Shown here: positions 16,190-55,900 of the stretch, piece by piece
Numbering within the stretch: position 1 is the stretch's first letter
Layout of the letters: each line of letters begins with the position of its first letter
Origin: Squalus acanthias
Lineage: Eukaryota
Direction of reading: 5' to 3'
Assembly (NCBI GenBank): GCA_030390025.1
Contig: CM059431.1
Span: forward strand, 142,540,001-142,604,000
DNA length: 64,000 bases
Translations under genes and position numbers: made by a program
Notes under the pieces: generated by a model
What the model was told of the DNA's origin: nothing
Seen by the model: the letters and a program-made list of their open reading frames with translations, nothing else
The model's database searches: none

Positions 16190-16291
16190 GTTTCTCCCTC
16201 ACAGGCTTCCTCTTTAAACAGATAAAGTACTTGTAAGGAAAAAAATGGAAAGATTTGTAAAAGTAATTTTAATAAAGTGAGTGGCTGGAAA

Positions 16292-16432: not shown

Positions 16433-17618
16433 GGCCCAAGATGATTTTCCAATAACTAACATTTTCAGAAAGTCATACATACATACTTAAAGGAATATAA
16501 TTGATATTTTCTTTTTTTAAACTTTTGTAAATATTACAGAATTCATTTTTAAACAGTCATTTTCACATTTAAGAAAAAATCTAATTCAATTAGGTCTTGC
16601 ACACAGCAAGAGTTGCTCCTTATAACTACACAACTCAAAACATGGTCCAAACCCGTTTTTTACAAATTTTTAAAGTTGGAAACTTACCTCAGACTTTCTG
16701 AAAAGAACTTTGCTCCCTTTCACAATTAAAAATATTCTGTTTAGTAGCCCCACTGCTGAAAGAGTTCTTCCTGATTGTCCAGGAGCTTCTGCCAAGGCTG
16801 TACGCCTGCTTTTTCCACGCGCAGCTGCTAGGGACTTACCCGCACTGCACCAGCTGAGAAAAACACGGAAGTTCCAGGTCTACGCGCTGCCTCTCCGGCG
16901 CAAGCGTTTGACCTGTGATCCCCTTCCTTCAATAGAACGGAAGTTCCAGTTTCCAGCGCATGCGCGAAACCGGCACTTCCGTTGGCCCTAAGGGTGAGTA
17001 CACAGCGCGTACACACCCGCGGGGAACGGGATTTCAGGGCCAAATCGGGCCAGAAATTCAGGTCGGAGGCTTCCCGCGGGTGCAAGCCCCCAACCTGCAC
17101 TTACATAGCGCGCCTGCCGTTGTGATGTGGGCCCGCGTGGGATTCCGATCCTGGGCCTCCTGCAGCTGCCGGCGCACAGTGCTCGCGTATCCCAGGGACG
17201 CAGTTAGTTCGAAGCGTCCCCTGGGATCACGTGGGCCATGGAGAGCCAATCGGAGCAGGGAATCTCCATTCATAGATTTGACAGGAAGACCTGTCAAATC
17301 TATGAATAGAGATCGGCCCCAAAACCTAAGTAAAACTTAAAATAAATTTAAAAAAACATCACATTTTTAAAATAACTATAAATTACATAAATTAACTATT
17401 TTAAACAATAATTTACATTTTTGAAAAACTTAATTACAGTTTTTAACGGGGCTAAAAATAAACTTACCTTTCTTTAAAGTATTTAAAAAAGATAAACCTG
17501 TGGGGAAAATGTTTTAATTTTAGTTCATTCCCCACTTACCTTGTTAAAAGCAGGAATAACAACAGAAAACGCTGGAAAAACTCAGCAGGCCAGGCAGCAT
17601 CCGTGGAGAGAGAAAGAG

Positions 17619-17655
17619 AGTTAACGTTTCAGGTCGATGACCTTTCATCAGAACT
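17619..17655 (-). ncRNA. Minimal type I hammerhead ribozyme motif
   Basis: AGUU-CUGAUGA-A-AGGUC-AUC-GACCU-GAAAC-GUU-AACU: complete core, helix II, palindromic helix III (AACGUU), helix I AGUU/AACU. Confidence 0.8.
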
Positions 17656-17934
17656 GTGAAGAGCCGGAAATCAAATAGATTTAAGGCCAGAGTAAAGCTG
17701 GGAAAAGGGGGAGGGGATAAAAGAACAAAGGGGGAGATGAAGAGACATTAAGAGACATTAAGAGATATGCAAGGCTAGAGGTGGTGTTAATGTGACAGAT
17801 TAAGGCTGAAAGAAGTGTGAAATCCACTGGCAGAATGAAGGACAGCTGCCAGCTTCTAGGAGGAAAAAAAAGGTGGGGGGGGGGGCAAATAAAAGGGTGG
17901 AAAAAATAAAATATAAATGTGATTGGAGCTGAGG

Positions 17935-19767
17935 TTATGATCTAAAATTGTTGAACTCGATATTGAGTCCAGAGGGCTGTAGCGTGCCTAAACGAAAGAT
18001 GAGGTGCTGTCCAAAAATGTGTGGGTTAGGTTGATTTGGCTATGATAAATTGACCCTTAGTGTTCGGGGGGGATTAAATATGTGGGGATAGGATGGGATA
18101 TGTCAGGGGGAATTAAATACGTGGGGTTATGGGGGTAGGGTGGGATATGTGTACTGTGGGGATTAAAGCAGGGACAGGGTACTGGATTTGGATGATCAGC
18201 CATGATCGTATTGAATGGTGGAGCAGGCTCGACGGGCCGAATGGCCTACTCCTGCTCCTAGATTCTATGTTTCTATGTTTCTATGTTTCTATGTTTCCTC
18301 AAGCTTACGCTGCGCTTCCGTGGAACAGTGTAATAGGCCGAGGACGGTGAGGTCAGAGTGGGAGTGAAGCGGTGAATTAAAGTGACAGGCCACCGGGAGC
18401 TCGGGGTCCCCCTTACGGACTGAACGGAGGTGTTCCGCAAAGCGGTCACCCAATCTGCGTTTGGTCTCCCCAATGTAGAGGAGACCACATCGTGAGCAGC
18501 GAATACAGTATACTAAATTGCAGGAAGTACAAGTAAATCGCTGTTTCACCTGGAAGGGGTGTTTGGGGCCCTGGACAGTGGGAAGAGGGGAGGTGTAAGG
18601 GCATGTGTTGCATCTCCTGCGCGTGCACGGGAAGGTGCCGGGCGAAGGGGAAGGGGTGCTGGGGGTGGTAGAGGAGTGGACTAGGGTGTCGCGGAGGGAG
18701 CGGTCCCTGCGGAATGCTGAAAGGGGAGGTGAGGGAAAGATGTGTTTGGTGGTGGGATCACGCTGGAGGTGGCGGAAATGGCGGAGGATGATCCGTTGAA
18801 TGTGGAGGCTGGTGGGGTGAAAGGTGAGGACAAGGGGAACCCTATCGTGGTTCCGGGAGGGAGGGGCAGGGGTGAGGGCAGAAGTGCGGGAGATAGAACG
18901 GACACGGTCGAGGGCCGTGTCGACCACGGTAGAGGGGAATCCTCGGTTGAGGAAAAAGGAAGACATGTCGGAAGCACTGGTATGGAAGGTGGCATCATCA
19001 GAGCAGATGCGGCGGAGACGGAGAAACTGGGAGAATGGAATAGAGTCCTTACAGGAGGCGGGGTGGGAGGAAGTGTAGTCCAGGTAGCTGTGGGAGTCAG
19101 TGGGCTTGTAGTGAATGTTAGTCAATAACCTATCCCCAGAGATGGAGATGGAGAAGTCGAGGAAGGGAAGGGAAGAGTCGGAGATGGACCATGTGAAGGT
19201 GAGGGAAGGGTGGAAATTGGAAGCATAGTGAATGAAATGTTCTAGTTCAGGGCGAGAGCAGGAGACGGCACCGATACAGTCATCAATGTACCAGAAAAAG
19301 AGGTGAGGGAGGGGACCCGAGTAGGACTGGAACAAAGAGTGTTCCACATATCCCACGAAAAGGCAGGCATAGCTAGGACCCATGCGGGTACCCATAGCAA
19401 CACCTTTAATTTGGAGGAAATGGGTAGAGTCAAAGGAGAAGTTGTTCAATGTGAGAACAAGTTCAGCCAGGCGGAGGAGGGTGGTGGTGGATGGGGACTG
19501 GTTGGGCCTCTGTTCAAGGAAGAAGCGGAGCGCCCTCAGGCCATCCTGGTGGGGAATGGAGGTGTAGAGGGATTGTACGTCCATAGTGAAGAGGAGACGG
19601 TTGGGGCCGGGAAACTGGAAACTGTTAAAATGGCGGAGGGCATCGGAAGAGTCGCGGATGTAGGTGGGAAGAGACTGGACAAGGGGAGAAAAAATAGAGT
19701 CGAGGTAGGAAGAGATAAGTTCCGTGGGGCAAGAACAGGCTGAAACGATGGGTCTACCGGGGCAGTC
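17935..19767 (-). pseudogene. Penelope RT/GIY-YIG endonuclease ORF (5'-truncated, split by a SINE)
   Basis: PGRPIVS, MDVQSLYTSIP, GVAMGTRMGPSYA, YIDD, LPFLD; NLVYCIRCSRCGLLYIGET.R.L..RF.EH; frame resumes across the SINE as QHLIFRLGTLQPSGLNIEFNNFRS*. Confidence 0.9.
18011..18295 (+). mobile_element. SINE fragment (HE1-like body) with a CR1-type 3' tail
   Basis: CCAAAAATGTGTGGGTTAGGTTGATTTGGCTATGATAAATTGACCCTTAGTG body followed by a CR1 tail ending in (TTTCTATG)n; interrupts the Penelope ORF. Confidence 0.65.
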
Positions 19768-19821
19768 CTGTTAAAAGCAGGCCTTGACTAACCTTCACTC
19801 CAAAACCTGTAAAAACCGGAA

Positions 19822-20001
19822 TAACAACAGAAAACGCTGGAAAAACTCAGCAGGCCAGGCAGCATCCGTGGAGAGAGAGAGTTAACGTTTCAGGTAAACG
19901 TTAACTCTCTTTCTCTCTCCACGGATGCTGCCTGGCCTGCTGAGTTTTTCCAGCGTTTTCTGTTGTTATTTCGGATTTCCAGCATCCGCAGTATTTTGTT
20001 A
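19822..20001. mobile_element. Fold-back Penelope-derived short insertion
   Basis: Two inverted copies of the Penelope 3' end; TSD CTGTAAAAACCGGAA at 19807-19821 and 20002-20016. Confidence 0.88.
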
Positions 20002-20165
20002 CTGTAAAAACCGGAAGTTCGCTGCGCGCGCGCTGCCTCTCCCGCGCACGCGGTTGACCCTTGAACCCCTTCTTTCACCAGACCAGAAGTTCCGGTTTCC
20101 CGCGCATGCGCAGTGGAATCTTCGAGCAGAAAGCAGCTTTTCACCAGAGGGTGAAACTCGGGCCC

Positions 20166-26472: not shown

Positions 26473-27150
26473 GGTCCTGGAGATGGACTGGGGAGAAAGG
26501 TCAGAGAGAGTCCCATTGACTCAGATACACACTGGTCCTGGAGATGGACCAGGGAGAAAGGTCAGAGAGAGTCCCATTGACTCAGATACACACTGGTCCT
26601 GGAGATGGACTGGGGAGAAAGGTCAGAGAGAGTCCCATTGACTCAGATACACACTGGTCCTAGAGATGGACTGGGGAGAAAGGTCAGAGAGAGTCCCATT
26701 GACATAGATACACACTGGTCCTGGAGATGGACTGGGGAGAAAGGTCAGAGAGAGTCCCATTGACTCAGATGCACACTTGTCCTGGAGATGGACTGTGGAG
26801 AAAGGTCAGAGAGAGTCCCATTGACTTAGATACACACTGGTCCTGGAGATGGACTGGGGAGAAAGGTCAGAGAGAGTCCCATTGACTCAGATACACACTG
26901 GTCCTGGAAATGGACTGGGGAGAAAGGTCAGAGAGAGTCCCATTGACTTAGATACACACTGGTCCTGGAGATGGACTGGGGAGAAAGGTCAGAGAGAGTC
27001 CCATTGACTCAGATACACACTGGTCCTGGAGATGGACTGGGGAGAAAGGTCAGAGAGAGTCCCATTGACTTAGATACACACTGGTCCTGGAGATGGACCG
27101 GGGAGAAAGGTCAGAGAGAGTCCCATTGACATAGATACACACTGGTCCTG
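26473..27150. repeat. Minisatellite, ~61-bp unit, ~11 copies (plus 24060-24140)
   Basis: Tandem GGTCCTGGAGATGGACTGGGGAGAAAGGTCAGAGAGAGTCCCATTGACTCAGATACACACT. Confidence 0.95.
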
Positions 27151-27319
27151 TAGACAGGCCACAAAGGTTACAGGGTAAGGAAGGAAATGATGAGAATGAG
27201 ACTGGGAGAGACTGACCACTGAGCCCAATTATCCAGCATGAGGCTGTGCAATGAAATGTGAAGTGAGATCAGTTTCTGTCTCTAAACACACAGTCACAGT
27301 GAATCTTGTGTGTGTTTTA

Positions 27320-29439: not shown

Positions 29440-30185
29440 CACATGTTATTCAGTTCTGGGCGCCGCCCCTCAGGAAAGAGATATTGGCCTTGGAGGGGAT
29501 TCAGCGCCGATTCATCGGAGTGATCCCTGAGCTAAAATGGTTAAATTATGAGGACAGGTTGCAAAGACTCGGCTTGTATTCTCTTGAATATAGAAGGCCA
29601 AGGGGTGATCTAATTGAGGTGTTTTAGATGATTAAAGGATTTGACAGGATAGATAGAGAAAAGCTAATTTTCCTCTGGTGGGGGAGTCCAGAACAATGAG
29701 GAATATCCTTCAAATTAGAGCCAGGCAGTTAGGGGTTGATAGGATCATAGAATCATCGTCACGGTAGAGTAGGAGGCCATTCAGCCCTTCCAGCCCGTGC
29801 TGGCTCTCTGCAAGAGCACTTCAGCTCAATCCCCCGCCCATCCTCCAGAGCCCTGCAATTATTTTCAGGGACTTATCTAGTTCCATTTGGGTGGCAGAAA
29901 GCTTTTGTTAAGACAAAGGGTAGTGGAAATCTGGAAATCACTCCCCCAAAAAGCTGGTGATGCTGGGGGGTCAATTGAAAATGTCATAACTGAGATTAAT
30001 AGACGTTTTTCTCTCTCCAGGGATGCTGCCTGACCTGCTCAGTGTTTCCAGCATTTTCTGTTGTTATTTTGTATTTCCAACATCCACAGTATTTTGCTAT
30101 TGTATTAATAGATGTTTGTTGGGCATTAAGGGTTACGGAACCAAGGCAGGTCTGTGGAGTTAAGACACAGATAAGCCATGGTCTA
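29440..30185. mobile_element. Nested old CR1 3' fragments with a Penelope-end fragment (~30005-30100)
   Basis: CR1 3' motifs on both strands; GATGCTGCCTGACCTGCT...TTTCCAGCATTTTCTG segment. Confidence 0.7.
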
Positions 30186-30194
30186 ATTTTTAAA

Positions 30195-31802: not shown

Positions 31803-32032
31803 ATAAAAGCTGAAAGTGCTGGAAACACTGAGCAGGTCAGGCAGCGACTGTGGGGAGAGGAAGGTGGGGTTAATGTTTCAGATCCTGAACCTGTTCTCAG
31901 GAAAGGTCATTGACCTGAACCGTTAACCCCACCGTCCCCTCCCCACAGACCCTGCCTGACCCGCTGAGTATTTCCAGCATTTTCAGCTTTTATGACAGAT
32001 TTCCAGCATCTCCAGTATTTTGCTGTTAGTAA
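31803..32032. mobile_element. Fold-back Penelope-derived short insertion (older)
   Basis: Inverted arms ATAAAAGCTGAAAGTGCTGG.../...CCAGCATTTTCAGCTTTTAT, decayed hammerhead helix II, tail, and 11-bp TSD TAATATTAGAA at 31792-31802 and 32033-32043. Confidence 0.82.
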
Positions 32033-33090: not shown

Positions 33091-33107
33091 GCTCCTTATG
33101 GCTTGTC

Positions 33108-34121: not shown

Positions 34122-34221
34122 CTCTCACAGCTACCTCACCTGAAGAAGGAGCGAACAGCTCCGAAAGCTTGTAAAATTAAATAAATCTGTTTGACTATAA
34201 CCTGGTGTTGTGCGACTTCTG
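34122..34221 (+). mobile_element. 100-bp insertion with a minimal hammerhead motif (second Penelope-like family end)
   Basis: CUGAAGA-A-GGAGC-GAACA-GCUCC-GAAAGCUU at 34140-34170; 12-bp TSD ATGATTCATAAC at 34110-34121 and 34222-34233. Confidence 0.78.
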
Positions 34222-34957
34222 ATGATTCATAACATTATACATTGGTGTTAATATTAGTGGAACAGCGGTAAATGTCCTCACCTACAGTGCTCATTAGTCA
34301 GGTGCTGACAACATGAGAGATATGGTCAATATATTCAAATAGAAGCACCAACCAGGACACATCTCCATGTACACACAGACAATGTCACTGCCCATAGAGA
34401 CCAGAGGGATCACACCCAGCTATATATTGTGTATGTGGATAGATATCATATTCATAAAGTACCGGAATTTATATCAAAACTCAATCAAAAACATTCAACA
34501 CAAATCTACGAATAAAAATATTCCAATACACCAGACTGTGTAAAACCGAGTAGTGGATTATTCAATTCATCAACAATCACCCGCTCCATATTTCTCTGCA
34601 GAATATTCTCTACCTCAGGAATAAGTCTGGTTTTGGCCTGCACTGTGTGAGTAAATCTCACCAATGGGCGCTCCCAGTGCGGAGTCTCGGCCGACGGAAG
34701 CCCGTCTGGAACTCGGTTGTGGGGATCAGCGGGACTCACTGGATTTCATTGGGCAGCTCTCTGTGTCACACCTGATGTGGAGAGTTGATCGTAACACTCG
34801 GGAAATGCTCGATCCCAGAGCTAACAGCTGGTGTACTGATGGGGGAGGAGGGACTTGATATCATGTTTAACAAGGCAGCGCTCTCCTCATTTTAATATTT
34901 CCGTCTAACCCTCCTATTAATGTTATATTTATTACAGAGCATCAGAACCTGGGAACC

Positions 34958-37900: not shown

Positions 37901-40900
37901 CAGATTTTCTCCTCTACCTCCCTCTCACTATTTGGAAGCCTATAGAATAGCGTGATCATACCCTTTTGCTCCTCAACGCTAACCAAATGGATTCTGTCCT
38001 TGTCCCCTCAAGAACATCCTCCCTTTCCATCACTACAATGTCTTCCTTAATCAGCACTGCCACACCACCTCCCTTTTTTCCTACCCTATCTTTTCTGAAC
38101 ACCTTGTACCCTTGAATATTAAGTGCCCAGTTCTCACCGTTTTTAAGCCACGTTTCCGTTATTGCCACAACATCATATTGCCACACGGCTAATTGTGCTT
38201 GTAGCTCATCAACCTTATTCACCAAACTTTGTGCGTTTACGTACATGCATTCTAAACCCATTTTTGAATTTTTCGTAGTCTTAGTCTGCTATCTAATATG
38301 GTACTAATACCGCCTCTAGTACTACCTTCTCTAGTACTATCCAACATACTCATTCTTTTATGCACCTTATTCCTCTTTTCTGCTCCTATATGCTGGTGCC
38401 CATCCCCTTGCCAAGCTAGTTTAAACCCTCCCCAACAGCACTAACAAACCTCCCCGCAAGAATATTGGTCCCGGCTCTGTTGAGGTGGAACCCGTCCGGC
38501 TTGTCCCACCTTCCCCAGAAACGGTCCCAATGCCTCAGGAATCTAAATCGCTCCCTCCTGCCCCATCTCTCCAGCCCCGCATTCATCTGTTCTATCCTCC
38601 TGTTTCCGTACTCACTAGCACGTGGCACTGGGAGTAATCCGGAGATTACTACCTTTGAGGTCCTGCTTTTTAATCTCTCTCCTAGCTCCCTAAACTCTGC
38701 CTGCAGGACCTCATCCCTCTTTCTGCCGATGTTATTGGTACCGATATGGACAACGACCTCTGGCTGTTCACCCTCCCCCCTCAGAGTGTCCTGCAGCCGC
38801 TCAGTGACATCGTTGATCCTAGCACCAGGGAGGCAACATACCTTCCTGGAGTCACGTCTGTGACCGCAGAAATGCCTGTCTGCTCCCCTAACTATTAAAT
38901 CCCCTACTACTATTGCACTCCCACTCCTTTTCCTCCCCCCCACCCCCCCACAGTCGTGCAGCTGAGCCTCCCGTGGTGCCGTGGACTTGATTCTGGCTGC
39001 ACTCCCCAGACGAACCAATTGCCCTCACCAGTACTCAGAACAGAATACTGGTTGGAGAGCGTGATTCACTCTGGGGACTCCTGCACTACCTGCTTGGTCC
39101 TCCTCTTCTGTCTGGCGGTCACCCATTCACTTTCTGCCTGCATACTATTGAGCTGCGGGGTGACCGCCTCTAGAAACGTGCTATCCATGTAACTGTCAGC
39201 CTCGCGGATGGACTGCAGCCGCGGCTCAAGCTCCGAAACCCGGAGCTCGAGTTGTTGTAGCTGGCGACACTTGCCGCACATTGCGCTGTAAGCAAACCCC
39301 TGGAATCTGTATTTCAAGGTTGAATTAGTGAAAATTTACAGATGCAGTGGATGATCGGGGTGGCTGGAAGGCAAGTCGTGTTTGACAAATTTGCACACTT
39401 TTTAAGAATTGACTATAGATTGATGGAATGCAGCACATGCGATGTATGTGGGTTTTCAGAAGGTGTTTGTTAATGTGGTTCTTTGTGTTCACAGATCCGA
39501 ACTCGAGAATCAATATGTTCTTGACCAAGTGCGACGATTACCAGCTGTTCCAGTTGACGAAATTCTACCGGGACAGACTGGAACAGGCGGTTGAAGAGGG
39601 TGTGGAGGGACTCGGTCTCTGGTTAACAGGCGGGGACTATTTCAGTGGACAAGAGTATCACGTGAGTGCGAGGGACACAGAATGAGTTTAGATTATTATA
39701 ACATCACATAACTGACACAATATCCTAACATAGGAACAAAAGAATCGCCATTACCGTTAATATCCCACCTAGTCTATTCCCAACCTCCTGCTCACTACCC
39801 ATTACTGTTAATATCCCACCTAGTCTAATCCCAACCTCCTGCTCACAGTCCATTACTGTTAATATCCCACCTAGTCTAATCCCAACCTCCTGCTCACTAC
39901 CCATTACTATTAATATCCCACCTAGTCTAATCCCCACCTCCTGCTCACTACCCATTACAGGTAATATCCCACCGAGTCTAATCCCAACCTCCTGCTCACT
40001 ACCCATTACTGTTAATATCCCATCTAGTCTAATCCCCACCTCCTGCTCACTACCCATTACTGTTAATATCCCATCTAGTCTAATCCCCACCTCCTGCTCA
40101 CTACCCATTACAGGTAATATCCCACCGAGTCTAATCCCAACCTCCTGCTCACTACCCATTACCGTTAATATCCCACCTAGTCTAATCCCAACCTCCTGCT
40201 CACTACATTACAGTTAATATCCCATCTAGTCTAATCCCAACCTCCTGCTCACTATACATTATCGTTAATTACCCATCTAGTCTAATCCCAACCTTCTGCT
40301 CACTACCCATTACCGTTAATATCCCACCTAGTCAAATCCCAACCTCCTGTTCACTACCCATTACCGTTAATATCCCACCTGGTCTAATCCCAACCTCCTG
40401 CTCACTACCCATTACCGTTAATATCCCACCTGGTCTAATCCCAACCTCCTGCTCACTACCCATTACTGTTAATATCCCACCTCGTCTAATCCCACCCTCC
40501 TGCTCAATACCATCACCGTTAATATCCCATACAGTCTCCAAGCAAGCAATAGAAATACCTGTTGTAACATTTTATAAACTTGCTTTTGCAACAATTAATG
40601 GAAGTATATTAGGCATTCTAACCACCGATACGGAAATAAATATATCCAGCCTCACCCGTAATACTGCGAATTATCCTAAATTTGGGCCCTCTGTTTCCAC
40701 TGTTTATTCAATCTGTAAACATTTATTTCATTATAAGCTTTCAGAATCTTGAATCAACTCGTCACTTATTGTGCACACCGAGAGTGACATGAGACCTAAA
40801 TTCTCAAATCCTTGCCATTACAATAACTCCTCATCCCTGATGATAACCTAGTTAATCTGCAGGACAATTTTTCATTATTTTTATTTCCTTCCTATAATTA

Positions 40901-43900
40901 ATTATCTAAACACTACACAACTGGGTAACTTACCTGCCCCTGTGCTCTTGGAACGTCACTCAAAAGGGAAACATCAGGAAATTGAGCTCATTCAGTCTGT
41001 AATTTCCTGCCCCTGTGCTCTGGGTGTGGAACGTCACTCCCCAGGGGAACGTCAAGAAATTACATAACATAAGAAATAGGAGCAGGAATAGGCCACTTGG
41101 CCCCTCGAGCCTGCTCCGCCATTCAATAAGATCATGGCTGATCTTGGGCTCAAAGCCACTTCCCCGCCTGCTCCCCATAACCCTTCACTCCCTTATCTTG
41201 CAAAAATTTGTCTCTCTCCACCTTAAATGTAATTAATGACCCAGCCTCCACAGCTCTCTGGGGCAGAGAATTCCACAGATTTACGACCCTCTGAGAGAAG
41301 AAGTTCCTCCTCATCTCAGTTCTAAAAGGGTGACCCTTTATTGTAAAACTGTGCCCCCGCGTTCTAGATTTCCCCATGCGGGGAAACATCCTCTCTGTAT
41401 CTACCTTGTCAAGCCCCCTCAGTATCTTATATGTTTTCAATAAGATCACCTCTCATTCTTCTGAACTCCAATGAGTATAGGCCCAGCCTGCTCAACCTTT
41501 CCTCATAAGTCAACCCCCTCATCTCTGGAATTAACCTAGTGAATCGTCTCTGAACTGCCTCCAATGCAAATATAACCTCCCTTAAATAAGGAGACCAAAA
41601 CTGTGCGCAGTACTCAAGGTGTGGTCTCACCAATACCCTGTACAGTTGTAGCTGGACTTCCCTGCTTTTATACTCCAACCCCTTTGAAATAAAGGCCAAC
41701 ATTCTATTTGCCTTTTTGATTACTTGCTGTACCTGCATGCTAACTTTTTGTGTTTCATGCACAAGGACAAGTTGAGCTCATTCAGTCTGTAATTTCCTGC
41801 CCCTTGGTGTGGAACGTCACTACCCAGGGGAACAGCAGGAATTATCTGTTAATTAAAATTAGTGGATGGATTTATACCCCGTTCTGGTTAAGGACAGAAT
41901 GAATTAGGGATGAAATATTAGTACGATAGCAAAATACTGCAGATGCTGGAAATCCGAAATAACAACAGAAAACGCTGGAAAAACTCAGCAGGCCAGGCAG
42001 CATCCGTGGAGAGAGAAACAGAGTTAACGTTTCAGGTCGAAGACCTTTCGTCAGAACTGGAAAAAGCAGGAAATGAAATAGATTTTAAAGCAAGTTTAGG
42101 GCTGGGAAAAGAGGGAGAGCATGAAAGAACAAAAGGGAAGGTCAGTGATAGGATAGAAAGCAGGAGAGATTAAGAGACATTGAGAGACATTAAGAGATAT
42201 TCAAGGCAAGAGGATGTGGTAATGGGACAGGTTGAGGAACAAAGGATGGCCCGAGATGAAGTGTGAATTGCGCTGGCAGAATGAAGGACAGCTGCCAGCT
42301 TCTGGGAGGGAAGAAAAAAAGGCCAAACAAAAGTGTGGATAAAAAAAAAATATATATATATAGGGCCGGGGTATTAGTAGTTGTATATATTATATTATAT
42401 TTCTCTTTCACTCTTTAGATTCAGTATCTTTTTTAATCCCCTGTTGTTACTTTGTGAAGGATTAAGCCATATATATTCAGAAAAATACACCATTCTATGA
42501 AAGCATTCTGGCCTTATTAAAACATGACAAACTGGGTTTGGAAATCTAGAAACCTCTATGAAAAAGCTGTGAAAGCATTCTGGCTATAGAGATAAGATAG
42601 TTGTTGACACTTAATCAATAACCTTATTGAAACAGAAGGTTAAAGGCTCCCGACAGGCTGACCTTTGGGAACAAGACAAGGTGTTCTAATTTACACTTCG
42701 TAAAGAAGCACAAACATCTGCCTTCGTAAAAATGACATAAAGTAAAACGCACCTGCCGTTGCACCGTTTTTTATGGTAAACTTAGAACACCTAGAGAAGA
42801 GACATAATTCTGTAATGCTACCAGCTGATCTGACTAAGAATTGCAGGGGTCAGCAGAAAAATGACTAGAGATAATTAGCTTACATCAGCAGAAAACCTTA
42901 AAGGAAATACCACTGGAAAAGGGTATAAATATTGAACTCTCAAATGGGATAGTAGATTCGCTTCAGAGGCGGCTCTGTCAGTCTCCAACTCTTTGTACCT
43001 CGGGGATCAAAGGTATTTGATTTTGGTGGATATCCTGTAGAAAACTAAGAACTGTAAAACTGTAGCGAAGTTAAGATTTGAGAGTAAGGATCTCTGATAA
43101 TAAGATTGTAAGCTTTCTCTTTTTGGAACTGTTAATGTTGCGATTGACTCACCAACTGTAAACTGCATGTTGGTTCTTTAATAAATCCATATATTTTCAG
43201 AATTGTCTCACATAAGACTTCTGTATCAAACTCGCAAACTCAATTTCTGTACATTCTTTGGTGAGGAGTTGCAGAATTCTGGGGGAGTTTTCCGGACCCT
43301 CATTATATCCGGAACGTTACAGTCTAGCTAAACTTATTAAAAGTGCTATCTGGAGGACGGTAACATTTTCAGGTTGTTCCTTTCCTTTAGGGAGAGATAG
43401 TCTGGACCTTTAGACCCAATTAAGCGTCTTTAGGATTCGGCTACCTCAAACTTTAGTTGAAAGTGAACGTCTGAGGAATATGCCTGATCCGGGGTAGCCC
43501 TAAAGGGTCTAGGACTAGTAATTATCCCTTCAACTTTAGGTTGTTTTAGATTATTTTTCCTCCAGTTAAACACTGGGAAGACTGAAGCCATCGTCTTTTA
43601 CCCCCACCACAAACCTCACCTCCTCAACACTTAATTTTATCCCCCTAATCGACCACTGCCTAAGGCTGAACTAGACTGTCCACAATCTCATCGTCCACCC
43701 CTGAGCAGGATCTTCGACCCCATATACTCTCCATCACAATGTTATGTCCTTGTAACTGTCCTGTCCTCCAGCTTTGCCTCAGCCCACCTCCTGCTGAACC
43801 CTCATTCGTGCATATTTAAACCCTAAATTCCACTGTTCCAATGACCCCCTGGTCAGCCTCCCACCTTGCACCCTCTGTAAACTTCAGTTACTCCAAAACT

Positions 43901-46900
43901 GCCTGAACCCTGTCCCGCTCAGATATCACTCGCATACTCCTTCACCAATACTGGCTCCCGGTCCTGGAATACCTCCAGTTTAAAATTCCCATCTTGCTGC
44001 TTAAATCCCTTCCTGGCCTCGCACCTGCCTATCTTTGTAACCGACTCCAGCCCTAGAACTCTCCCGTGCTATTGTAATTTCCATTGCTCTGGCTGTGGTC
44101 TCCAGTGCACCCCCTCCCTCACACCACCACTGTTGGCCGAGCGTTCAGTTTTCTTTGGCCTCACGCTCTGGAATTCATTCTCTGATCCCCTCCACCTCTA
44201 CACCTCCCTCCACTCCTTAAAACCTATCTTTCCCCGAGCTCCTAGCCACCTGTTAAGAACATAAGAACATGGAGCACACCAATCGGCCCCTCGAGCCTGC
44301 TCCGCCATTCAATGAGATCATGGCTGATCTGATCCAACCTCAACTCTAAAGAACACAAGAAGCAGGAGCAGGACCAGGCCACTCGGCTCCGCCATCCACA
44401 GGGCCTTGACCGATCCGAACTCAAACTGATGTCCAATTTCCAGCCCGCTCCCCGTAACCCCTGATTCCCTTTACTTCTAGGAAACGGTCTATTTCTGTTT
44501 TAAATTTATTTAATGAAGTAGCTTCCACAGCTTCCTGGGGTAGCAAATTCCACAGACCCACTACCCTCTGAGTGGAAAAGTTTCTCCTCATCTCAGTTTT
44601 GAAAGAGGAGCCCCTTATTCTAAGATTATGTCCCCTAGTTCTAGTTTCACCCATCATTGGGAACATCCTCACCGCGTCCACCCGATCAAGCCCCTTCACA
44701 ATCTTATATGTTTCAATAAGATCGCCTCTCATTCTTCTGAACTCCAATGAGTAGAGTCCCAATCTACTCAACCTCTCCTCGTATGTCCACCTCCTCATCC
44801 CCGGAATTAACCGAGTGAACCTTCTTTGTACTGCCTCGAGAGCAAGTATGTCTTTTCTTAAGTATGGACACCAAAACTGTATGCAGTACTCCAGGTGCGG
44901 TCTCACCAATACCTTATATAACTGCAGCAATACCTCCCTGTTTTTATAATCTATCCCCCTAGCAATAAAAGCCAACATTCCATTGGCTTTCTTGATCACC
45001 TGCTGCACCTGCATACTAACTTTTTGATTTTCTTGCACCAAGACCCCCAGATCCCTTTGTACTGCAGTACTTTCCAGTTTCTCGCCATTAAGATAATAAC
45101 TTGCTCTCTGATTTTTCCTGCCAAAGTGCATAACCTCACATTTTCCAATATTGTATTGCATCTGCCAAATCTCTGCCCACTCTCCCAGCCTGTCTATATC
45201 CCCTTGTAGGTTTTTATATGTCCTCCTCACTCTCTACTTTCCCTCCCATCTTTGTATCATCTGCAAACTTTGATATGTTACACTCGGTCCCCTCCTCCAA
45301 ATCGTTAATATAGATTGTAAAGAGTTGGGGACCCAGCACCGACCCCTGCGGAACACCACTGGCTACTGGTTGCCAGTCCGAGAATGAACCATTTATCCCA
45401 ACTCTCTGCTTCCTGTTAGATAACCAATCCTCCATCCATGCCAGAATATTACCCCCAATCCAGTGATTTTTTATCTTGAGTAATAATCTTTTATGTGGCA
45501 CCTTGTCGAATGCCTTCTGGAAGTCTAAATACACTACATCCACTGGTTCCCCTTTATCCACCCTATACGTTATGTCCTCAAAGAACTCGAGCAAATTTGT
45601 CAGACATGACTTCCCCTTCATAAAGCCATGCTGACTTTGTCCTATTAAATTATGTTTATCTAAATGTTCCGTTACTCTCTCCTTAATAATAGACTCCCAA
45701 ATTTTACCCACCACAGATGTTAGGCTAACTGGTCTATAATTTCCAGCCTTCTGCCTACAACCCTTTTTAAATAAGGGTGTTAGATTAGCAGTTTTCCAAT
45801 CTGCCGGGACCTTTGCTGAGTTCAGGGAGTTTTGGAAAATTATTACCAAAGCATCCACAATTCCTACTGCCACTTCCCTCAAGACCCTAGGATGTAAGCC
45901 ATCAGGTCATGGGGATTTATCCGCCTTGAGTCCCATTATTTTACTGAGTACCAATTCCATAGTGATTTTAATCGTATTTAGCTCCTCCCCCACTAGAGCC
46001 CCCTGTTTGTCCAGTGTTGGGATATTCTTAGTGTCCTCTACCGTAAAGACTGAAACAAAATATTTGTTCAGCATTTTTGCCATCTCCATGTTTCCCACCA
46101 TTAATTTCCCGGTCTCATCCTCTAAGGGACCTACGTTTGCCTTAAACACCCTTTTTCTTTTTATATAACTATAGAAACTCTTGCTATCTGTTTTTATATT
46201 TTTTGCTAATTTATTTTCATAGTCTATTTTCCCTTTCTTAATCAATCCTTTAGTTACTTTTTGTTGTCTTTTGAAGACTTCCCAATCTTCTATCCTCCCA
46301 CTAACTTTAGCTACCTTATATGTCCTTGTTTTTAGTTGGATACTTTCTTTAATTTCTTTACTTAGCCATGGATGGCTGTCATTTCTTTTACACCATTTTT
46401 TCCTCAGTGGAATATATTTATTTTGAAAGTTGTAAAATAACTCCTTGAATGAACACCACTGCTCATTTACCGTCTTACCCTTTAATCTATTTTCCCAGTC
46501 CACTTTAATCAATTCTGCTCTCATGCCATCAAAGTCTCCTTTATTCAAGCTCAGTATGCTTGTTTGAGAACCAACCTTCTCACCCTCTAATTGGATATGG
46601 AATTCAACCATGTTATGGTCACTCATTCCAAGGGGATCCTTAACTAGGATATTATTAATTAATCCAGACTCATTACACAGTACCAGGTCCAAGGTTGCTT
46701 GCCCCCTTGTAGAATCAGTTACATACTGCTCAAGAAATCCATCCCTAAGACACTCAATAAACTCTTCCTCAAGCCTGCCCTGCCCAATTTGATTTGCCCA
46801 GGTAATATGATAGTTAAAATCCCCCATAATTATAGCTGTTCCCTTATTACATGCCCCAACTATTTCCTGATTAATACTTCTTCCAACAGAGTTGCAACTA

Positions 46901-49900
46901 TTAGGAGGCCTATATACTACGCCCACCAGTGTTTTTTCCCCCTTATTATTCCTTATCTCTACCCAAACTGTTTCATTATCCTGATCTTTTGACCCAATAT
47001 CATTTCTCTGTATTACAGTGATTCCTTCCTTTATTAACATAGCCACCCCTCCTCCCCTTCCTTCCTGCCTGTCCTTCCTGATTGTTAAATACCCTGGCAT
47101 ATTTAATTCCCAGATGTTGTCACCCTGCAGCCATGTTTCTGTAATGGCCACAAGATCATACCCATACATAGTTATTTGTGCCGTTAACTCGTCAATTTTG
47201 TTACGAATGGTACGTGCATTCAGATAAAGAACTTTCAAATGTGTTTTGTGACACTTACTTCCTGTTTTTTCCTTATTTAACACTTTACCTTTTACTCCAT
47301 ACCTTCTGTCCCTTCCTGACATGCTTTCCTCTGTCTCCCTGCTCAGGTTCCCAACCCCCTGCCACATTAATACATCCTCCTCTGTCCCGGGGGCATTGTC
47401 TGATTCCGCCTCTGTGAAACACCTTGGGACGTTGTTCTATGTTAAAGGCCAGATATCAATGGAAACTGTTGATTACATTCGTGACTACACGAGCCCCGTT
47501 GCTGGACATGTGCTCCTAGTTACCGAGGTTTCACACCGGCAGCGAGAGTGCAAATTAAAGGTTACACATATTTCAATTACCAAGGAAAATGTGATTGGAT
47601 ATTTTTTCTCATTATAATTATTGGTCAAGATTGTCCTTACCGATAAATCAACAGTGGTTGTTTCGATTAGTGGGTGTAATTTCTCAGACAGTTTTCTAGC
47701 TGCTTCCCTCACTTCAGAATCGTCCCTCCCCTGTCACTGGAGTTCTGATTCGCTGCTGTTTTATTTCTGGAGTAAATCACAAAGTGTGACATCAGGAAGT
47801 AAGTGTGAGAAACGAGTGAAACATATTGTCAATAAGTAACCTGATGTCATGTTGGACACTGAGGGACAGAGAAAACTAATCCCATTAAAACTACTGCTGA
47901 TTCTCTGTGATTCCTTGGTCTCCTAGATCAATATTTCTGATTTCTATTTTAGTTTCACCACATTTTGTTGCCATTAATGAGTGAATCAAGATGTTTACAG
48001 AATATTCAGCCCCTGTTCAGAATGGATCAGTACCCGGCCCAGTGACTGCTTTCTGTGCTCAAAACAACTGGGAGATCCCATCACTGAGCAGATCCTTTCC
48101 TTCTCATTCTCCGTGTTTGTCTTTCTCTCCTCTCCTCAATATATTCATTATTATTATAGAAAGTCACTGAGCTCGCAGAGAAGGGAAACCGGGCGGACAG
48201 TTCCAAACTTCTCCTAACTCTGGTGATGGAGAAAGGCTCTGGAGCTCGAAGGGTGATGTGGGAATCCTTTCTGAAAATGCGCCATAGGTTACCAAAGCTG
48301 GACAAAATACTGAGAGAAATACAGGAACCTGGTACAGTAAAATCACTCACTGAATTCAATGTCCAGATTCAAACACTGAAGATTTTACTATAATATTTCA
48401 CAGATCTGATTTCATGAAAGTTAATTGATTTAAACAGGTTCTGATCCATTTAAGTACATGAACATCGCAGAAGGTTTATACGAAGTACCCAGTCACCTGA
48501 CAGGTAAGTGATGACATGGAAATTTCAAACCGCTTACTTCACCCCTGAGAACAGAATGTTTGACCGTAGCATAGAAGATAGGAGCAGGAGTAGGCCATTC
48601 GGCCCCTCGAGCCTGCTCCGCCATTTAATGAGATCATGGCTGATCATCCAAATTCAGTACCCTGTCCCTGCTTTCTCCCCATATCCCTTGATCCCTTTAG
48701 CCTTAAGAAATATATCTTTCTCCTTCTCGAATATATTTATTGAATTGGTCTCAACTGCCTTCTGTGCTAGAGAATTCCACCGGTTCACCACTCTCTGGGT
48801 GAAGAAATTCCTCCTCATCTCAGTCCTAAATGGCTGACCCCTTATCCTGAGATTATGCCCCCTAGTTCGAAACACTCCAGGAAGGGGAAACAACCTCTCG
48901 GCATCTACCCTGTCAATCCCCTTCGGAATCGTGTATGTTTCAATGAGATCACCTCTCATTTTTCTAAACTCCAGAGAGTATCGGCCCATTCTGCACAATC
49001 TGTCATCATAGGACAGCCCTCTCATCCCAGGAGCCAATCTAGTGAACCTTCGCTGCACCGCCTCCAAGGCAGGTATATCCTTCCTTAGATAAGGAGACCA
49101 AAACTGTGCACAGTTCTCCAGGTGTGATCTCACCAAGGCCCTGTACAATTGTAGCAAGACTTCCTCACTCTTATACTCCAACCCCCTTGCAATAAAGGCC
49201 AACATGCCATTGCCTTCCTTATTGCTTGCTGTACCTGCATGCTAGCTTTCAGTGTTTCTTACACGAGGACATCAAAATCTCTCTGAACACCAACATTTAA
49301 ACATTTCTCACCATTTAATAACCATTCCGGTTTTCTTTTCTTCCTAATAAAGTGAATAACCTCACATTTCCCTATATTATACTACATCTGCCACTTTATT
49401 GCCCACTCACTCAGTCTATCTATATCCCTTTGCGGGCTCTTTGTGTCCTCCTCATAGCTTACTGTCCCACCTAGCTGTGTATCGTCAGCAAACTTGGATA
49501 CATTACACTCGGTGCCTTCATCTAGGTCATTAATATAGATTGTAAATAGCTAAGACCCCAACACTGATCCTTGCAGCACCCCACTAGTTACAGCCTGCCA
49601 ACCTGAAAAAGACCCAATTATCCCTGCTGTCTGTTAACCAATCCTCTATCCATGCTACTATATTACCCCCAATTCCATGAGCCCTTATAGAGTAATAGAG
49701 TCATAACTCTATCTTGTGTAATAACCTTTAATGTGGCACCTTTATAGAATGCCTTTTTGGAAATCCAAATATACTACATCCAATGATTCCCCTTTATACA
49801 CCCTCTTTTGTACAGCTTCAAAATCTGTAATAAATTTGTCAAACACGATTTCCTTTCATAAAACAATGTTAACTCTGCCTAATCATAGAATCATAGAAAT

Positions 49901-52900
49901 TTACAGCAGGGAAGGAGGCCATTTCGGTCCATCATGTCCGTGCCGTCCAACAAAGAGCTATCCAGCCTAATCCCACTTCCCAGCACTTGGTCCGTAGCCC
50001 TGCAGGTTACAGCATCCCAAGTGCACATCAAAGTACTTTTTAAATGTGGTTAGGGTTTCTGCCTCTACCACCTTTTCAGGCAGTGAGTTCCAGACCCCCT
50101 CCACCCTCTGGGTGAAGACATTTCTCCTCAAATCCCCTTTAAACCTCCTACCAATTACATTAAATATTGTTTAAATGCCCCTGGTTGTTGACCCCTCTGC
50201 TAAGGGAACTAGGTCCTTCTTATCCACCCTATCTAGGCCCCTCATAATTTTATACACCTCAATAAGGTCTCCGCTCAGCCTCCTCTGTTCCAAAGAAAAA
50301 AAACCCAGCCTATCCAATCTTTCCTTGTAGCTAAAATTCCCCAGCCCAGGCAACAACCTCGGAAATCTCCTCTGCACCCCCTCTAGTGCAATCACATCCT
50401 TCCTGTAGTGTGGTGACCAGAACTGCACGCAGTATTCGAGCTGTGTCCTAACTAGTGTTTTATACAGTTCAAGCACAACCTCCCTGCTCTTGTATTCTAT
50501 GCCTCGGCTAATAAAGGCAAGTATTCCGTATGCCTTCTTAACCACCTTGCCTACTTGGCCTGCTATCTTCAGGGATCTGTTGACCTGCACTCCAAGGTCC
50601 CATTGTTCCTCTAAACTTCTCAGAGTCCTACCATTTAATGTGTATTCCCTTTCCTTGTTAGCCCTCCCCAAATGCATTACCCCTCACTTCTCTGGATTGA
50701 ATTCCATTTGCCACTGTTCTACCCACCAGATCAGTTCATTGATATTTTCCTGCAGTCTACGGGTGGTTTCTTCATTATCAACCACACAGCTGATTTTAGT
50801 ATCATCTGCAAACTTCTTAATCCTACCCCCTGCATTCAAGTCTAAATCATTGCTATCTACCACAAAAAGCAAGGGACCGAGTACTGAGCCCTGCGGAACC
50901 CCACATCATGTTATGATTTTCTAAGTGCCCTTACACCATTTTCTTAGCAATGGATTCCAGCATTTTCCCGACGTCTGATAGGCTAACTGGCCTGTAGTTC
51001 CCTGTTATTACTCTCCCTCCTTTGCTGAATAGCGGTGTTACATTTGCTACCTTCCAATCCGCTGGGACTGTTCTAGAGTCTCGGGAATTTTGGATGATCT
51101 AAACAATTGCATCCACGAACTCTGCAGCCACCTCTTTTGGAACCCTAGGATGTAGGCCGTCTGGTCCAGGGGATTTGGCGGGTTTTAGTCCCATTAGCTT
51201 CGCTAGTAGTTGTTCTCTATATTTATATTAATTACATTACGTACCTCACCCTCATTAGACCCTTGGTTCCCGGCCATTTTTGCTATGCTTTTTGTAGCTT
51301 CTACTATGAAGACAGATACAAAATATTTGTTTAACGTTTCTGCCATTTCTTTATACTCCATAATAAATTTCTCCTGTCTCATCCTCTAAAGGACCAACAT
51401 TTACTTTTGCTACTCTCTTTCTTTTTACATACTTGTAGAAACTCTTACAATCTGTTTTTATATTTCTTGCTAGCTTTCTCTCATATTCAATTTTTCCCTT
51501 TTTATCAATTTTCTGGTCACCCTTTGCTGGTTTCTGAAACTCTCCCAATCCTCCGGCTTACTACTAGTCATCACAACATTATAAGCTTCTTCTTTCAATC
51601 TAATGCTATCCTTAACTACTTTAGTTAGCCAAAGTTGGATCACTTTTCCCGTGGAATTTTTGTTTCTCGATGGAATGTATTTTTGTTGAGAATGATGAAA
51701 TATTTCCTTAAATGCTAGCCACTGCTTATCTACCGTCATACATTTTAACCTATTTTTCCAATCTACCTTCGCCAACTCGCCCCTCATACCTATGTAATTG
51801 GCTTTATTTATGTTTAAGACTAGTTTCGGACTTAGGATTTCACGTTTAAGTTTGAGCGTGACTTGCCTATCATATTATGGTCACGCTGTCCGAGAGGAAC
51901 CTTTACTATAACATTGCTAAGTAAACCTGTCTCATTCCACAATACAAGATCTAAAATAGCCTGATCCCTGGATGGTTCCATGACGTATTGTTCTAGGAAA
52001 CTTTCCCTAATGCATTCCATGAACTCATCCTCCAGACTACATTTGCCAATTTGATTGTCCAGTCTATATGAAGATTATAGTTCCCCATGATTATTGCATT
52101 ACCTTTGTTAAAAGCTCCTACTATTTTTTGATTGATATTCTGTCCAAAGGTATAGCTACTGTTAGGGAGCCTATATACTACTCCCATCAATGTTTTCTGC
52201 CCCTTGTTATTCCTGACCTCCACCCATACTGATTCTACTTCCTGATCTTCCGAGCCGAGGTCCTTTCTCTCGACTGTCGTTACGTCATTCTCTATTATCA
52301 ATGCTACCCCACTCCTTTTCCATTCTGCCTGTCTTTTTTAGAAATGTTAAGTGCCCTGGAACATTTACTTCCCAACCTTGGTCACCTTGCAACCAAGTCT
52401 TTGCAGTGACTATTAGATCAAACCTATTTATCTCTATTTGTGGCACTAGTTCATCTATCTTGCTTGAATGCTGAGTGCAATCAGATTAAGAGCCTTTCTT
52501 TTAATATTTTTACAATTATTCCCTGATTTGATCTTAATCTCTGCTGCGCTGCTCCTGTTAAACTCTGTGCCTTGCTGGCGCACCCTCATTATTTTTACCC
52601 AAATCGGTACACTGTTCTATTGCCTTGACATTTCTCCATTAGATTTCTAAATTTTCCCTCAGCCAAACCAACACACCATTTTAGGAAACCTCATACACAC
52701 CTGGCAGGATCCTGATACACTGTGAAACCCCATATACACCTGGCAGGATCCTGATACACTGTGAAACCCCATACACACCTGGCAGGATCCTGATACACTG
52801 AAACCCCATACACACCTGGCAGGATCCTAATACACTGTGAAACCCCATACACACCTGGCAGGATCCTGATACACTGTGAAACCCCATACACACCTGGCAG

Positions 52901-55900
52901 GATCCTGATACACTGTGAAACCCCATACACACCTGGCAGGATCCTGATACACTGTGAAACCCCATACACACCTGGCAGGATCCTGATACACTGTGAAACC
53001 CCATACACACCTGGCAGGATCCTGAGACACTGAAACCCCATACACACCTGGCAGGATCCTAATACACTGTGAAACCCCATACACACCTGGCAGGATCCTG
53101 ATACACTGTGAAACCCCATACACACCTGGCAGGATCCTAATACACTCTGAAACCCCATACACACCTGGCAGGATCCGAATACACTGAAACCCCGTACACA
53201 CCTGGCAGGATCCTGAGACACTGAAACCCCATACACACCTGGCAGGATCCTGATACACTGTGAAACCCCATACACACCTGGCAGGATCCTGAGACACTGA
53301 AACCCCATACACACCTGGCAGGATCCTGATACACTGTGAAACCCCATACACACCTGGCAGGATCCTGATGCACTGTGAAACCCCATACACACCTGGCAGG
53401 ACCCTGATAAACTGTGAAACCCCATACACACCTGGCAGGATCCTGATACACTGTGAAACGCCAGACACACCTGGCAGGATCCTGATACACTGTGAAACCC
53501 CATACTCACCTGGCAGGATCCTGATACACTGAAACCCCATACTCACCTGGCAGGATCCTGATACACTGTGAAACCCCATACTCACCTGGCAGGATCCTGA
53601 TGCACTGAAAAACACCATACACACCTGGCAGGATCCTGATACACTGTGAAACCCCATACACACCTGGCAGGATCCTGATACACTGAAACCCCATACTCAC
53701 CTGGCAGGATCCTGATACACTGTGAAACCCCATACTCACCTGGCAGGATCCTGATGCACTGAAAAACACCATACACACCTGGCAGGATCCTGATACACTG
53801 TGAAACGCCAGACACACCTGGCAGGATCCTGATACACTGTGAAACCCCATACTCACCTGGCAGGATCCTGATGCACTGAAAAACACCATACACACCTGGC
53901 AGGATCCTGATACACTGTGAAACGCCAGACACACCTGGCACAGATCCTGATACAAGTGAAACCCCATACACACCTGGCAGGATCCTGATACAATGTGAAA
54001 CCTCATACACACCTGGCAGCATCCTGATACACTGTGAAACCCCATACACACCTGGCATCATCCTGATACACTGTGGAAACCCCATACACACCTGTCAGGA
54101 TCCTGGTATAGTGTTAAACCCCGTAGAATCTTTGGAATTCTCTACCCAAGAGAGCTGTCAAGGAGGAGTCATTGAATATATTCAAGGTGGAGATTGACAG
54201 ACATTTGAACTACAAGGGAGTCAATGGGTATAGTGAGAGAGCGGGAAAGAGGTGTTGAGGCCAAGATTGGATCAGCCATGATCTTACTGAATGCCGGAGC
54301 AGGCTCGAGCGATAGGCTCCTGGCAGGATCCTGATACACTGTGAAACCCCATACACACCGGGCAGGATCCTGATACACTGTGAAACCCCATACACCCCTG
54401 GCAGGGTCCTGATACACTGTGAAACCCCATACACACCGGGCAGGATCCTGATGCACTGTGAAACCCCATACTCACCTGGCAGGATCCTGATTTACTGTGA
54501 AACCCCATACTCACCTGGCAGGATCCTGATGCACTGTGAAACCCCATACTCACCTGGCAGGATCCTGATTTACTGTGAAACCCCATACTCACCTGGCAGG
54601 ATCCTGATTTACTGTGAAACCCCATACTCACCTGGCAGGATCCTGATGCATTGTGAAACCCCATTCACACCTGGCAGGATCCTGATACACTGTGAAACCC
54701 CATACACCCCTGGCAGGGTCCTGATACACTGTGAAACCCCATACACACCTGGCAGGATCCTGATACAATGTGAAACCTCATACACACCTGGCAGTATCCT
54801 GATGCACTGTGAAACCCCATACACACCGGGCAGGGTCCTGATACACTGTGAAACCCCATACACACCTGGCAGGATCCTGATACACTGAAACCCCATACTC
54901 ACCTGGCAGGATCCTGATACACTGTGAAACCCCATTCACACCTGGCAGGATGCTGATACACTGTGAAACCCCATACACACCTGGCAGGATCCTGATACAA
55001 TGTGAAACCTCATACACACCTGTCAGAATCTTGGTACACTGTGAAATCCCATACACACCTGGTCGGATTCCAACACCACGTCAATCCAAATACAAACCTT
55101 CTATGTGCCGTAGCGACGCTCTGGGCTGACTAGTCAAGATCAGTGCTTTGTCCCAGATGTTGAGGATTACCTGCATCCCTAGAAATCTGCCCCACTGCAA
55201 TCTGTATAGATATATCTGGAGAAATGCAAAATATTAAAATGTTATTACTTCTCAGCACAGCACGAGGCCTCAGAATGTGTTCGATCCGATCTGAAAAGAT
55301 TCTGCCAGCGCATTTCACACTTCATCTCGCTTCAGCCTGTCACATTAACACCTTCTCTTGCCTTGATTATCTCTTTATGTCTCTCAATGTCTCTTCATCT
55401 CTCCTGCTTTCTATCCCACCACTGACCTTCACTTTTGTTCTTTCATCCCCTCCCCCTTTTATCAGCTTTATACTTGCTTTAAATCTATTTCCTTTTCTGC
55501 TTTTTTCCAAGTCTGACGAAAGGTCTTCGACCTGAACTGTTAACTCTGTTTCTCTCTCCACGGATGCTGCCTGGCCTGCTGAGTTTTTCCAGCGTTTTCT
55601 GTTATTTCGGATTTCCAGCATCCGCAGTCTTTTGCTATCGTGAAAAGATGTACAGATGTTCACACAGTTGAACATTAATCCAAGGAGGAATATGTGGAAA
55701 AATCAATTTCCAGGGTCACTAGGAAGTTATTGGCTAGCCTCCTAATGGCAGCGAAAGGGAGAACCTCATTTTTCTCTCAATAGTATTTTAATTCAGGAGT
55801 CTTTTAGAGCTAATGTAATGACTTACGGAAACATATTTGTAATTTCCCAAACCTGCATTATAGGAAACTAAGACTAAAATAAAACAACGGGGTATCATTA

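Follow-up and report, generated by a model that had tools for sequence, protein, structure and literature searches.

In the reading that we consider very probable, the window (the whole 64,000-nucleotide stretch of Squalus acanthias DNA that was analysed) contains copies of an EN+ Penelope-like retroelement whose 3′ pseudo-LTR (pLTR) carries a known minimal type I hammerhead, and the short copies represent 5′-truncated or 5′-inverted insertions whose solo ribozymes are inert. The copies can be divided into two families: seven insertions with a total of ten arms (family 1, the Penelope-like copies with the palindrome AACGUU), and a single insertion at 34122-34221 (family 2). Directly established are the ribozyme motif, the open reading frame (ORF), the target-site duplications (TSDs), the varied 5′ ends, two 3′ end points 34 nt apart, the inverted arms and the pattern of decay.

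The coding capacity of family 1 is represented by one long copy, with the following features:
17555..19768, minus strand, long Penelope-like copy, 5′-truncated, ending without the 34-nt tail and flanked by a 13-bp TSD (17542-17554 and 19769-19781)
18292..19770, minus strand, open frame of 493 codons comprising a reverse transcriptase (RT, from mid-domain), thumb, CX4CxxC linker and GIY-YIG endonuclease
18010..18294, plus strand, later insertion of 285 bp with a (TTCTATGT)n end, which splits the C-terminus of the endonuclease from the remaining ORF
17935..18009, minus strand, final 24 codons of the ORF with its stop, displaced

The 493-codon frame has YIDD at residue 161, and Pfam recognizes RVT_1 and GIY-YIG within it, both weakly and below the curated cut-offs. 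Of 8000 proteins scored in a search with the frame, 961 reached E ≤ 1e-20; among the 120 matches listed, shark and ray relatives show 61-71% identity, and relatives of full length have about 800 aa. In a shark relative of 654 aa the frame sets in at about residue 289, and the long copy is therefore 5′-truncated; as it is also interrupted, it is not autonomous. It carries one pLTR, and no full-length copy with two pLTRs is present in the window. [quoted passage not shown] The CX4CxxC linker occupies residues 382-390, and the CX2-5CxxC form is found in 78 of the 120 homologs listed. In the accessible text of Craig et al. 2021 (PMC8557442) the CX2-5CxxC linker is given for Neptune and Nematis, not for Penelope/Poseidon; this comparison of linkers points toward Neptune or Nematis and away from Penelope/Poseidon. 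Protein alignment found no relatives in viral contigs, and a 28-nt pattern matched 0 loci in viral contigs and 0 in metagenome contigs.

Two complete minimal type I hammerheads are present among the family-1 copies:
17619..17655, minus strand, intact minimal type I hammerhead about 280 nt past the ORF stop, predicted cut after GUU
42022..42058, minus strand, intact minimal type I hammerhead within a 448-bp tailed fragment

Both motifs consist, in order, of helix I (4 bp, open-ended), CUGANGA, an extra A, helix II (5 bp, closed by a 3-nt loop), GAAA, CG, UU and helix I′. Loop 3 is absent, and positions 15.2-16.2 are palindromic (AACGUU in family 1, AAGCUU in family 2). The differences between the two motifs are confined to N7 and loop II (chance about 0.01-0.02). 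A relaxed descriptor run over the 64-kb window matched these two places and no other, and the mean over 200 dinucleotide block shuffles was 0.03 matches, with 0 of the minimal type. As far as sequence features can be compared, the motif is that of the minimal hammerheads in Penelope pLTRs, and cleavage is predicted. The original prediction of two hammerhead cores with a loopless AACGUU helix III is confirmed by these searches, and its assignment of the copies to a PLE with a putative dimer-type minimal hammerhead is borne out by the motif, the ORF and the ends. The hammerhead search that it proposed succeeded in part: the descriptor finds both motifs, but an Rfam scan of the window at E ≤ 1 contains no hammerhead family, probably because the Rfam models do not fit a loopless helix III. 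Nine Rfam matches were listed, all below the gathering scores, and those displayed map to the 19.8-kb and 31.9-kb inverted repeats. A third CUGANGA/GAAA match at 36870 does not satisfy the full descriptor and was rejected. Fold z-scores were not significant for the family-1 motif and the downstream stem. In the best predicted fold of the family-1 monomer the core is buried by pairing with CGUUA, an inactive shape; cofolding gave other shapes, and does not model the catalytic fold.

Decayed copies had been placed at 55513, about 31900 and about 35285, and these positions are correct, with core defects located in each. The core sequences CUGANGA, GAAA and UH are complete at 17619-17655 and 42022-42058 but not at 55513, 31.9 kb and 35.2 kb. 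In the copy at 55513 (motif 55509-55545, plus strand) A15.1 is changed, the palindrome is broken and helix I is altered. The copy near 31900 has CUCAGGA and GAAC in its core, and in the copy near 35285 an inversion has turned the 5′ half of the core round.

Family 2, which is absent from the original prediction, is represented by one insertion:
34122..34221, plus strand, family-2 hammerhead insertion with an intact CUGAAGA/GAAA/UU core, the palindrome AAGCUU and a 12-bp TSD

Its motif has G10.1-C11.1 and one mismatch in helix I. Contig depth over the insertion is very high in three of four runs, where the run data stem from 4 of 24 runs and from contigs with small word shares (0.06-0.23) and of uncertain RNA status.

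Besides the long copy, family 1 comprises six short insertions:
19822..20001, young inverted-plus-direct insertion, with arms 19822-19895 (minus strand, tail-less) and 19896-20001 (plus strand, tailed) and a 15-bp TSD
30004..30103, plus strand, 100-bp tailed 3′ fragment starting just past the predicted cut, without ribozyme, 9-bp TSD
31803..32032, older inverted-plus-direct insertion of another subfamily, with arms 31803-31884 (minus strand, tail-less) and about 31890-32032 (plus strand, tailed) and an 11-bp TSD
35204..35314, minus strand, tail-less arm 35204-35300 with a 13-nt remnant of the opposite arm, in the first coding intron of a NACHT-LRR (NLR) gene, no intact core and no TSD
41924..42371, minus strand, 448-bp tailed 3′ fragment, 8-bp TSD, in an NLR intron, antisense
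55301..55640, plus strand, 340-bp tailed 3′ fragment, 9-bp TSD, in an NLR intron, sense

TSDs of 8-15 bp flank seven of the eight insertions (13, 15, 9, 11, 8 and 9 bp in family 1, 12 bp in family 2), and at the 35.2-kb copy a TSD was sought and none was found. Random position pairs attain a repeat of 8 bp in 0.2% of 5000 trials, a control to be read with the caveat that the search for TSDs partly defined the 5′ boundaries of the copies. Near 10286, a paralogous empty site has a single copy of each sequence that is duplicated around the long and the 19.8-kb copies. The insertion sites are A/T-rich and non-microsatellite. The claim that ribozyme-bearing short ends insert separately with TSDs of 8-15 bp is supported; the lengths had been put at 180-450 bp, and the measured range is 100 to 448 bp. 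Two further copies of the family, at 19822-20001 and 30004-30103, are without the full motif. Both arms of the 19.8-kb insertion start inside the ribozyme, and therefore neither has it complete; the decayed core of the 31.8-kb insertion lies in the tailed plus-strand arm. Recent activity had also been proposed, and this holds for some insertions (the 19.8-kb arms are identical at 69/69 positions, apart from one 4-nt gap), but ages are mixed (69/79 between the 31.8-kb arms).

The 3′ ends fall into two classes about 34 nt apart: tailed ends at 19.9, 30, 32 (direct arm), 42 and 55 kb, and tail-less ends at 17555, 19822, 31803 and 35204. In contigs over the 35.2-kb copy the tail forms a loose end in each of the four runs (86, 68, 31 and 66 records), and at a related locus (L002) the tail is on the inverted arm only. 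The 5′ ends of the copies all differ. Five arms cross the predicted cut uncut: those of the long, 42-kb and 55-kb copies and the direct arm at 32 kb, all four of which extend over 30 nt to its 5′ side, and the 35-kb arm, which includes most of helix II. An origin of the short copies as 3′ cleavage products was rejected, since 0 arms start at the cut.

The anole Poseidon element suggests the following course of insertion. The RT-endonuclease would nick A/T-rich DNA, and reverse transcription would begin inside the element’s own uncut RNA at either of two sites. The two internal start sites would give rise to tailed and tail-less arms, and synthesis that mostly ends early would leave inserts of 100-450 bp. 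A lone ribozyme would be unable to close helix III, and cleavage after GUU would occur only when two copies pair via AACGUU, in a transcript, tandem or with two pLTRs, that comes from an intact source element; the element’s protein would probably assist cleavage by the paired ribozymes. Solo copies are most likely inert passengers that would decay neutrally irrespective of their orientation in NLR introns. Dimer cleavage is reportedly also described by Lunse et al. (RNA Biol).

The short copies had originally been regarded as a distinct non-coding derivative family, and one may ask whether they constitute a family apart, non-autonomous and retrozyme- or SINE-like, which has a master of its own and is transcribed, cut by the ribozyme, perhaps circularised, and mobilised in trans by the Penelope protein. 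The 42-kb and 55-kb copies have in common a 28-nt segment that the long copy lacks, and their upstream sequences are identical at 184/207 positions, versus 146/179 for the comparison with the long copy. The window is without a full-length two-pLTR source, and so a shorter non-autonomous master for these two copies is conceivable; several subfamilies of the full element would, however, explain the differences equally well. The repeat is very abundant in the contigs of all four runs examined, and vertebrate non-LTR retrozymes akin to pLTRs, one chondrichthyan included, are reported in the accessible text of a recent preprint (bioRxiv 10.64898/2026.07.22.740005). Against this, the short copies are co-linear with the 3′ UTR of the long copy, and inversions together with a tail are, in the available descriptions, signatures of the autonomous mechanism. 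Retrozyme arrays were rejected, as ribozymes in consecutive tandem units were not found and none of the 28 tandem-repeat rows of the window contains a tandem unit. An origin as SINEs was likewise rejected, the 5′ ends being varied, with none at the cut, and Pol III A and B boxes (sought as simple patterns) being absent from six of the six copies scanned. A separate family is therefore quite unlikely, and the short copies are better read as truncated or inverted insertions of the full element.

The positions of the 5′ ends bear on a further possibility, in which the ribozyme fold, cutting aside, acts as an RT pause or template-switch site that sets the starts of the short copies and the inversion joints. 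Seven of the ten family-1 arms have 5′ ends in the stretch from 35 nt ahead of the predicted cut to about 7 nt past it (offsets of -7, -12, -13, -22, -34, -35 and about +5 to +7), and each of the three inversion joints lies within or at the motif. Counted per insertion the figure is four of seven, with a rough p of 0.004-0.04 if exponential truncation is assumed. The comparison is nevertheless post hoc, with a small n and an invented null model, and copies shorter than about 50 nt go undetected. In related loci, moreover, the inverted repeat extends upstream of the core by about 490 nt in L002 and by about 46 nt in L003, and such a pause site is considered unlikely. The fuller proposal, that the hammerhead fold doubles as the pause or template-switch site of the Penelope RT and that an abundant shark repeat owes both its length class (100-140 nt) and its inversion joints to this fold, is distinctly improbable. 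If true, the ribozyme would have a structural part in transposition even at places where it never cleaves, and many-copy shark genomes would make the pause role, and intronic strand filtering of intact cores, directly testable.

Between the long and the 42-kb copies the motif and its downstream block are identical at 98/101 positions, versus 146/179 upstream (p=0.0001), a pattern that fits possible constraint in the source elements. Conservation of the ribozyme is matched by that of the downstream block and therefore need not reflect catalysis. Among the window copies the core has 4/71 mismatches and downstream DNA 52/566 (p=0.50), where the core count excludes eight cells beyond two inversion joints; with them it becomes 9/79, likewise no different from downstream. 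The core of inserted copies is thus kept no better than downstream DNA, in agreement with neutral decay. It had been anticipated that core nucleotides would be more conserved than flanks, and this is seen for the motif with its downstream block over upstream sequence in the long and 42-kb copies, not for the core among the window copies.

Related loci allow a broader comparison (80 loci kept out of 522 encoding relatives). Nine motifs of the same build occur in eight of the 80, versus 0.07 per shuffled set, and of the 31 related loci whose downstream DNA is long enough, only 4 have a sense motif near the ORF end under a strict descriptor. Across eleven motifs, helix I always has standard pairs at its first two positions, and helix II at all four of those counted, with several pair types represented, an observation to be read in the knowledge that 10 of the 11 were chosen by a descriptor that demands pairing. 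The extra A between positions 9 and 10.1 and the self-complementary 15.2-16.2 are found in 11 of 11. Family 1 has A10.1-U11.1, and the other nine of the eleven (family 2 and eight of eight related loci) have G-C; G10.1-C11.1 is, in the accessible text of PMC4209133, a typical trait outside the authors’ own descriptor and hence not defining.

Several copies lie within or close to a host gene:
34940..63700, plus strand, NLR gene with coding exons at about 34940-35021, 39494-39661, 48160-48336, 48437-48499 and 58190-59963, followed by LRR exons

The first coding exon opens with a splice acceptor and is joined to the second by contigs of three runs, and the NACHT exon shares 81-90% identity with the 120 proteins listed, all of which are from sharks. 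The exon positions, taken from homologs, place the 35.2-kb, 42-kb and 55-kb copies in introns, each between coding exons, in agreement with the earlier claim of three copies inside the NLR unit. It also proved correct that the intact intronic core (42 kb) is antisense and the core of the sense copy (55513) is broken; on neither strand does the 35.2-kb copy have an intact core. The family-2 insertion lies about 720 bp 5′ of the first coding exon, with its intact core on the strand of the gene.

It is tempting to view this arrangement as the product of selection that filters introns, wherein an intact sense hammerhead would cut the NLR pre-mRNA, leaving antisense or broken copies. The sole intact motif among the three intronic copies is indeed antisense, and between the sense and the 42-kb copies 4/37 motif positions are changed, versus 1/61 downstream (plus a 3-nt gap). 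Retroelements in introns show a general antisense bias, however, which would imitate the pattern, and n is three, with the third intronic copy lacking an intact core on both strands. A broken plus-strand copy also occurs at 31.9 kb, 3 kb upstream of the first coding exon and outside the mapped gene; decay therefore also occurs outside the gene as mapped. Mismatches in the core versus downstream DNA (4/71 and 52/566, p=0.50) likewise argue against selection. In the accessible texts, Xenopus retrozymes are reported to be depleted in introns, strand aside (bioRxiv 10.64898/2026.07.22.740005), but single minimal motifs are uncleaved in vitro (PMC4209133) and the anole motif required protein (PMC11167929). 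A literature search, mostly outside subscription journals, found no paper devoted to strand bias of PLE hammerheads in introns. Filtering of this kind is very improbable, and the claim of selection against a sense ribozyme in NLR introns is unsupported.

The finding is one further shark example of a class known since 2014, when minimal hammerheads (min-HHR) in the pLTRs of metazoan PLEs were described by Cervera and De la Peña (PMC4209133). In the accessible text of that paper, a single minimal motif shows no cleavage and dimers show low cleavage, and min-HHR are reported from fish Xena, Poseidon and Neptune elements; the accessible part of a review supports the dimer view of cleavage. The motifs of the window resemble these min-HHR in being of type I, in their 4-bp helix I, the extra nucleotide between 9 and 10.1, the absence of loop 3 and the palindromic 15.2-16.2, and in occurring mostly as single motifs on truncated copies, with some opposite-strand pairs. 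They differ in their elasmobranch host, which is not named in the accessible text, in having A10.1-U11.1 in family 1 rather than the usual G-C, and in the 5-bp helix II. A literature search, mostly outside subscription journals, found no paper devoted to hammerheads of shark PLEs.

Animal non-LTR retrozymes (Li, Clavereau and Pollet 2026, bioRxiv 10.64898/2026.07.22.740005) are, as far as the accessible text shows, also short, non-coding, pLTR-related and equipped with a type I hammerhead. That study defines them as tandem repeats in which two or more consecutive units carry a ribozyme, whereas the copies described here are solo or inverted and of varied length. The family may figure under the single chondrichthyan sampled in that study.

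What such ribozymes do for the element is the open question of the field, as the accessible parts of PMC11167929 and PMC8557442 convey. A family with many copies, whose ends are defined by TSDs, offers useful material for this question, for which a single window is insufficient. Compared with the EN+ PLEs Neptune and Nematis, as accessible in PMC8557442, the element shares an RT followed by a C-terminal GIY-YIG, the CX2-5CxxC linker and CCHH-type residues, together with 5′ truncation, an inverted 5′ arm and a tail of 30-40 bp at one end. It differs from them in its clear 8-15 bp TSDs and A/T-rich non-microsatellite sites, and no full-length copy is present in the window.

An account of such ends exists for PAc, the Poseidon element of the anole Anolis carolinensis (Frangieh et al. 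2024, PMC11167929). In the accessible text its tail is explained by two internal priming sites, and its ribozyme requires protein, is dispensable for insertion in vitro and yields no reads ending at the cut site. PAc belongs to Penelope/Poseidon, is without the linker zinc finger, unlike the shark element, and has a ribozyme that overlaps the ORF start. The two agree in a pair of 3′ end points separated by the tail, in A/T-rich targets and in uncut copies that span the cleavage site.

A single host repeat has taken two independent insertions of Penelope family 1, the Penelope-like element with a minimal type I hammerhead, at sites lying 25 bp apart and marked by target site duplications (TSDs) of 13 bp (17542-17554 and 19769-19781) and 15 bp (19807-19821). 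The interval that separates the two insertion sites is shorter than its counterpart in an empty paralog. The repeat adjoins a transposase frame and may be a related DNA-transposon end, and it recurs elsewhere in the window, once within the NACHT-LRR (NLR) host gene.

15041-16198 (-): open 385-codon DDE_Tnp_4 (Harbinger-type) transposase frame
~10040-10750 and ~62530-62950: further copies of the Penelope-hosting repeat, the insertion within the LRR exon units of the NLR gene spanning ~62440-63215
61355-63400 (+): tandem exon-intron units of ~308 bp that hold the NLR gene's LRR exons
38419-39024 (-) and 45910-47436 (-): LINE-fragment frames in NLR introns, esterase-like (GDSL/OSK) and AP-endonuclease
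5800-9116, 52685-55062, 39748-40529 and 26472-27154: long minisatellites with units of 22, 39, 51 and 61 bp
34122-34221 (+): second minimal hammerhead family, unrelated in sequence to family 1, with a 12-bp TSD

The 61-bp minisatellite unit recurs in inverted orientation at 40-286. Contig depth of the second hammerhead repeat is high in three of the four sequencing runs compared and nil in the remaining one, and for this family we infer a connection with a Penelope ORF.

The tail, an extra 34 nt at the 3′ end of some family 1 copies, is predicted to fold onto the block directly 3′ of the ribozyme in a 9-bp stem (within 41924-42021, minus strand), and the end point of tail-less copies falls inside this hairpin, for which the fold z-score is not significant. 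In a related element on a metagenome contig (L002), both arms bear a ribozyme and the inverted arm alone carries the tail.

1864-2457 and 3648-4238 of L002: regions with direct and inverted arms

Among the 120 homologs of the ORF listed, one, a zebra shark gene model of the element (P0160), contains a hammerhead-like readthrough peptide (LMKG..PKRQ, residues 509-519), which matches the putative translation of a minimal hammerhead. The ORF in the window is itself interrupted.

18010-18294 (+): insertion within the Penelope ORF, ending in (TTCTATGT)n

The 3′ portion of this insertion is found again at ~24.2, 41.1, 44.3 and 48.6 kb, and the insertion looks like a possible shark SINE whose tail derives from a LINE.
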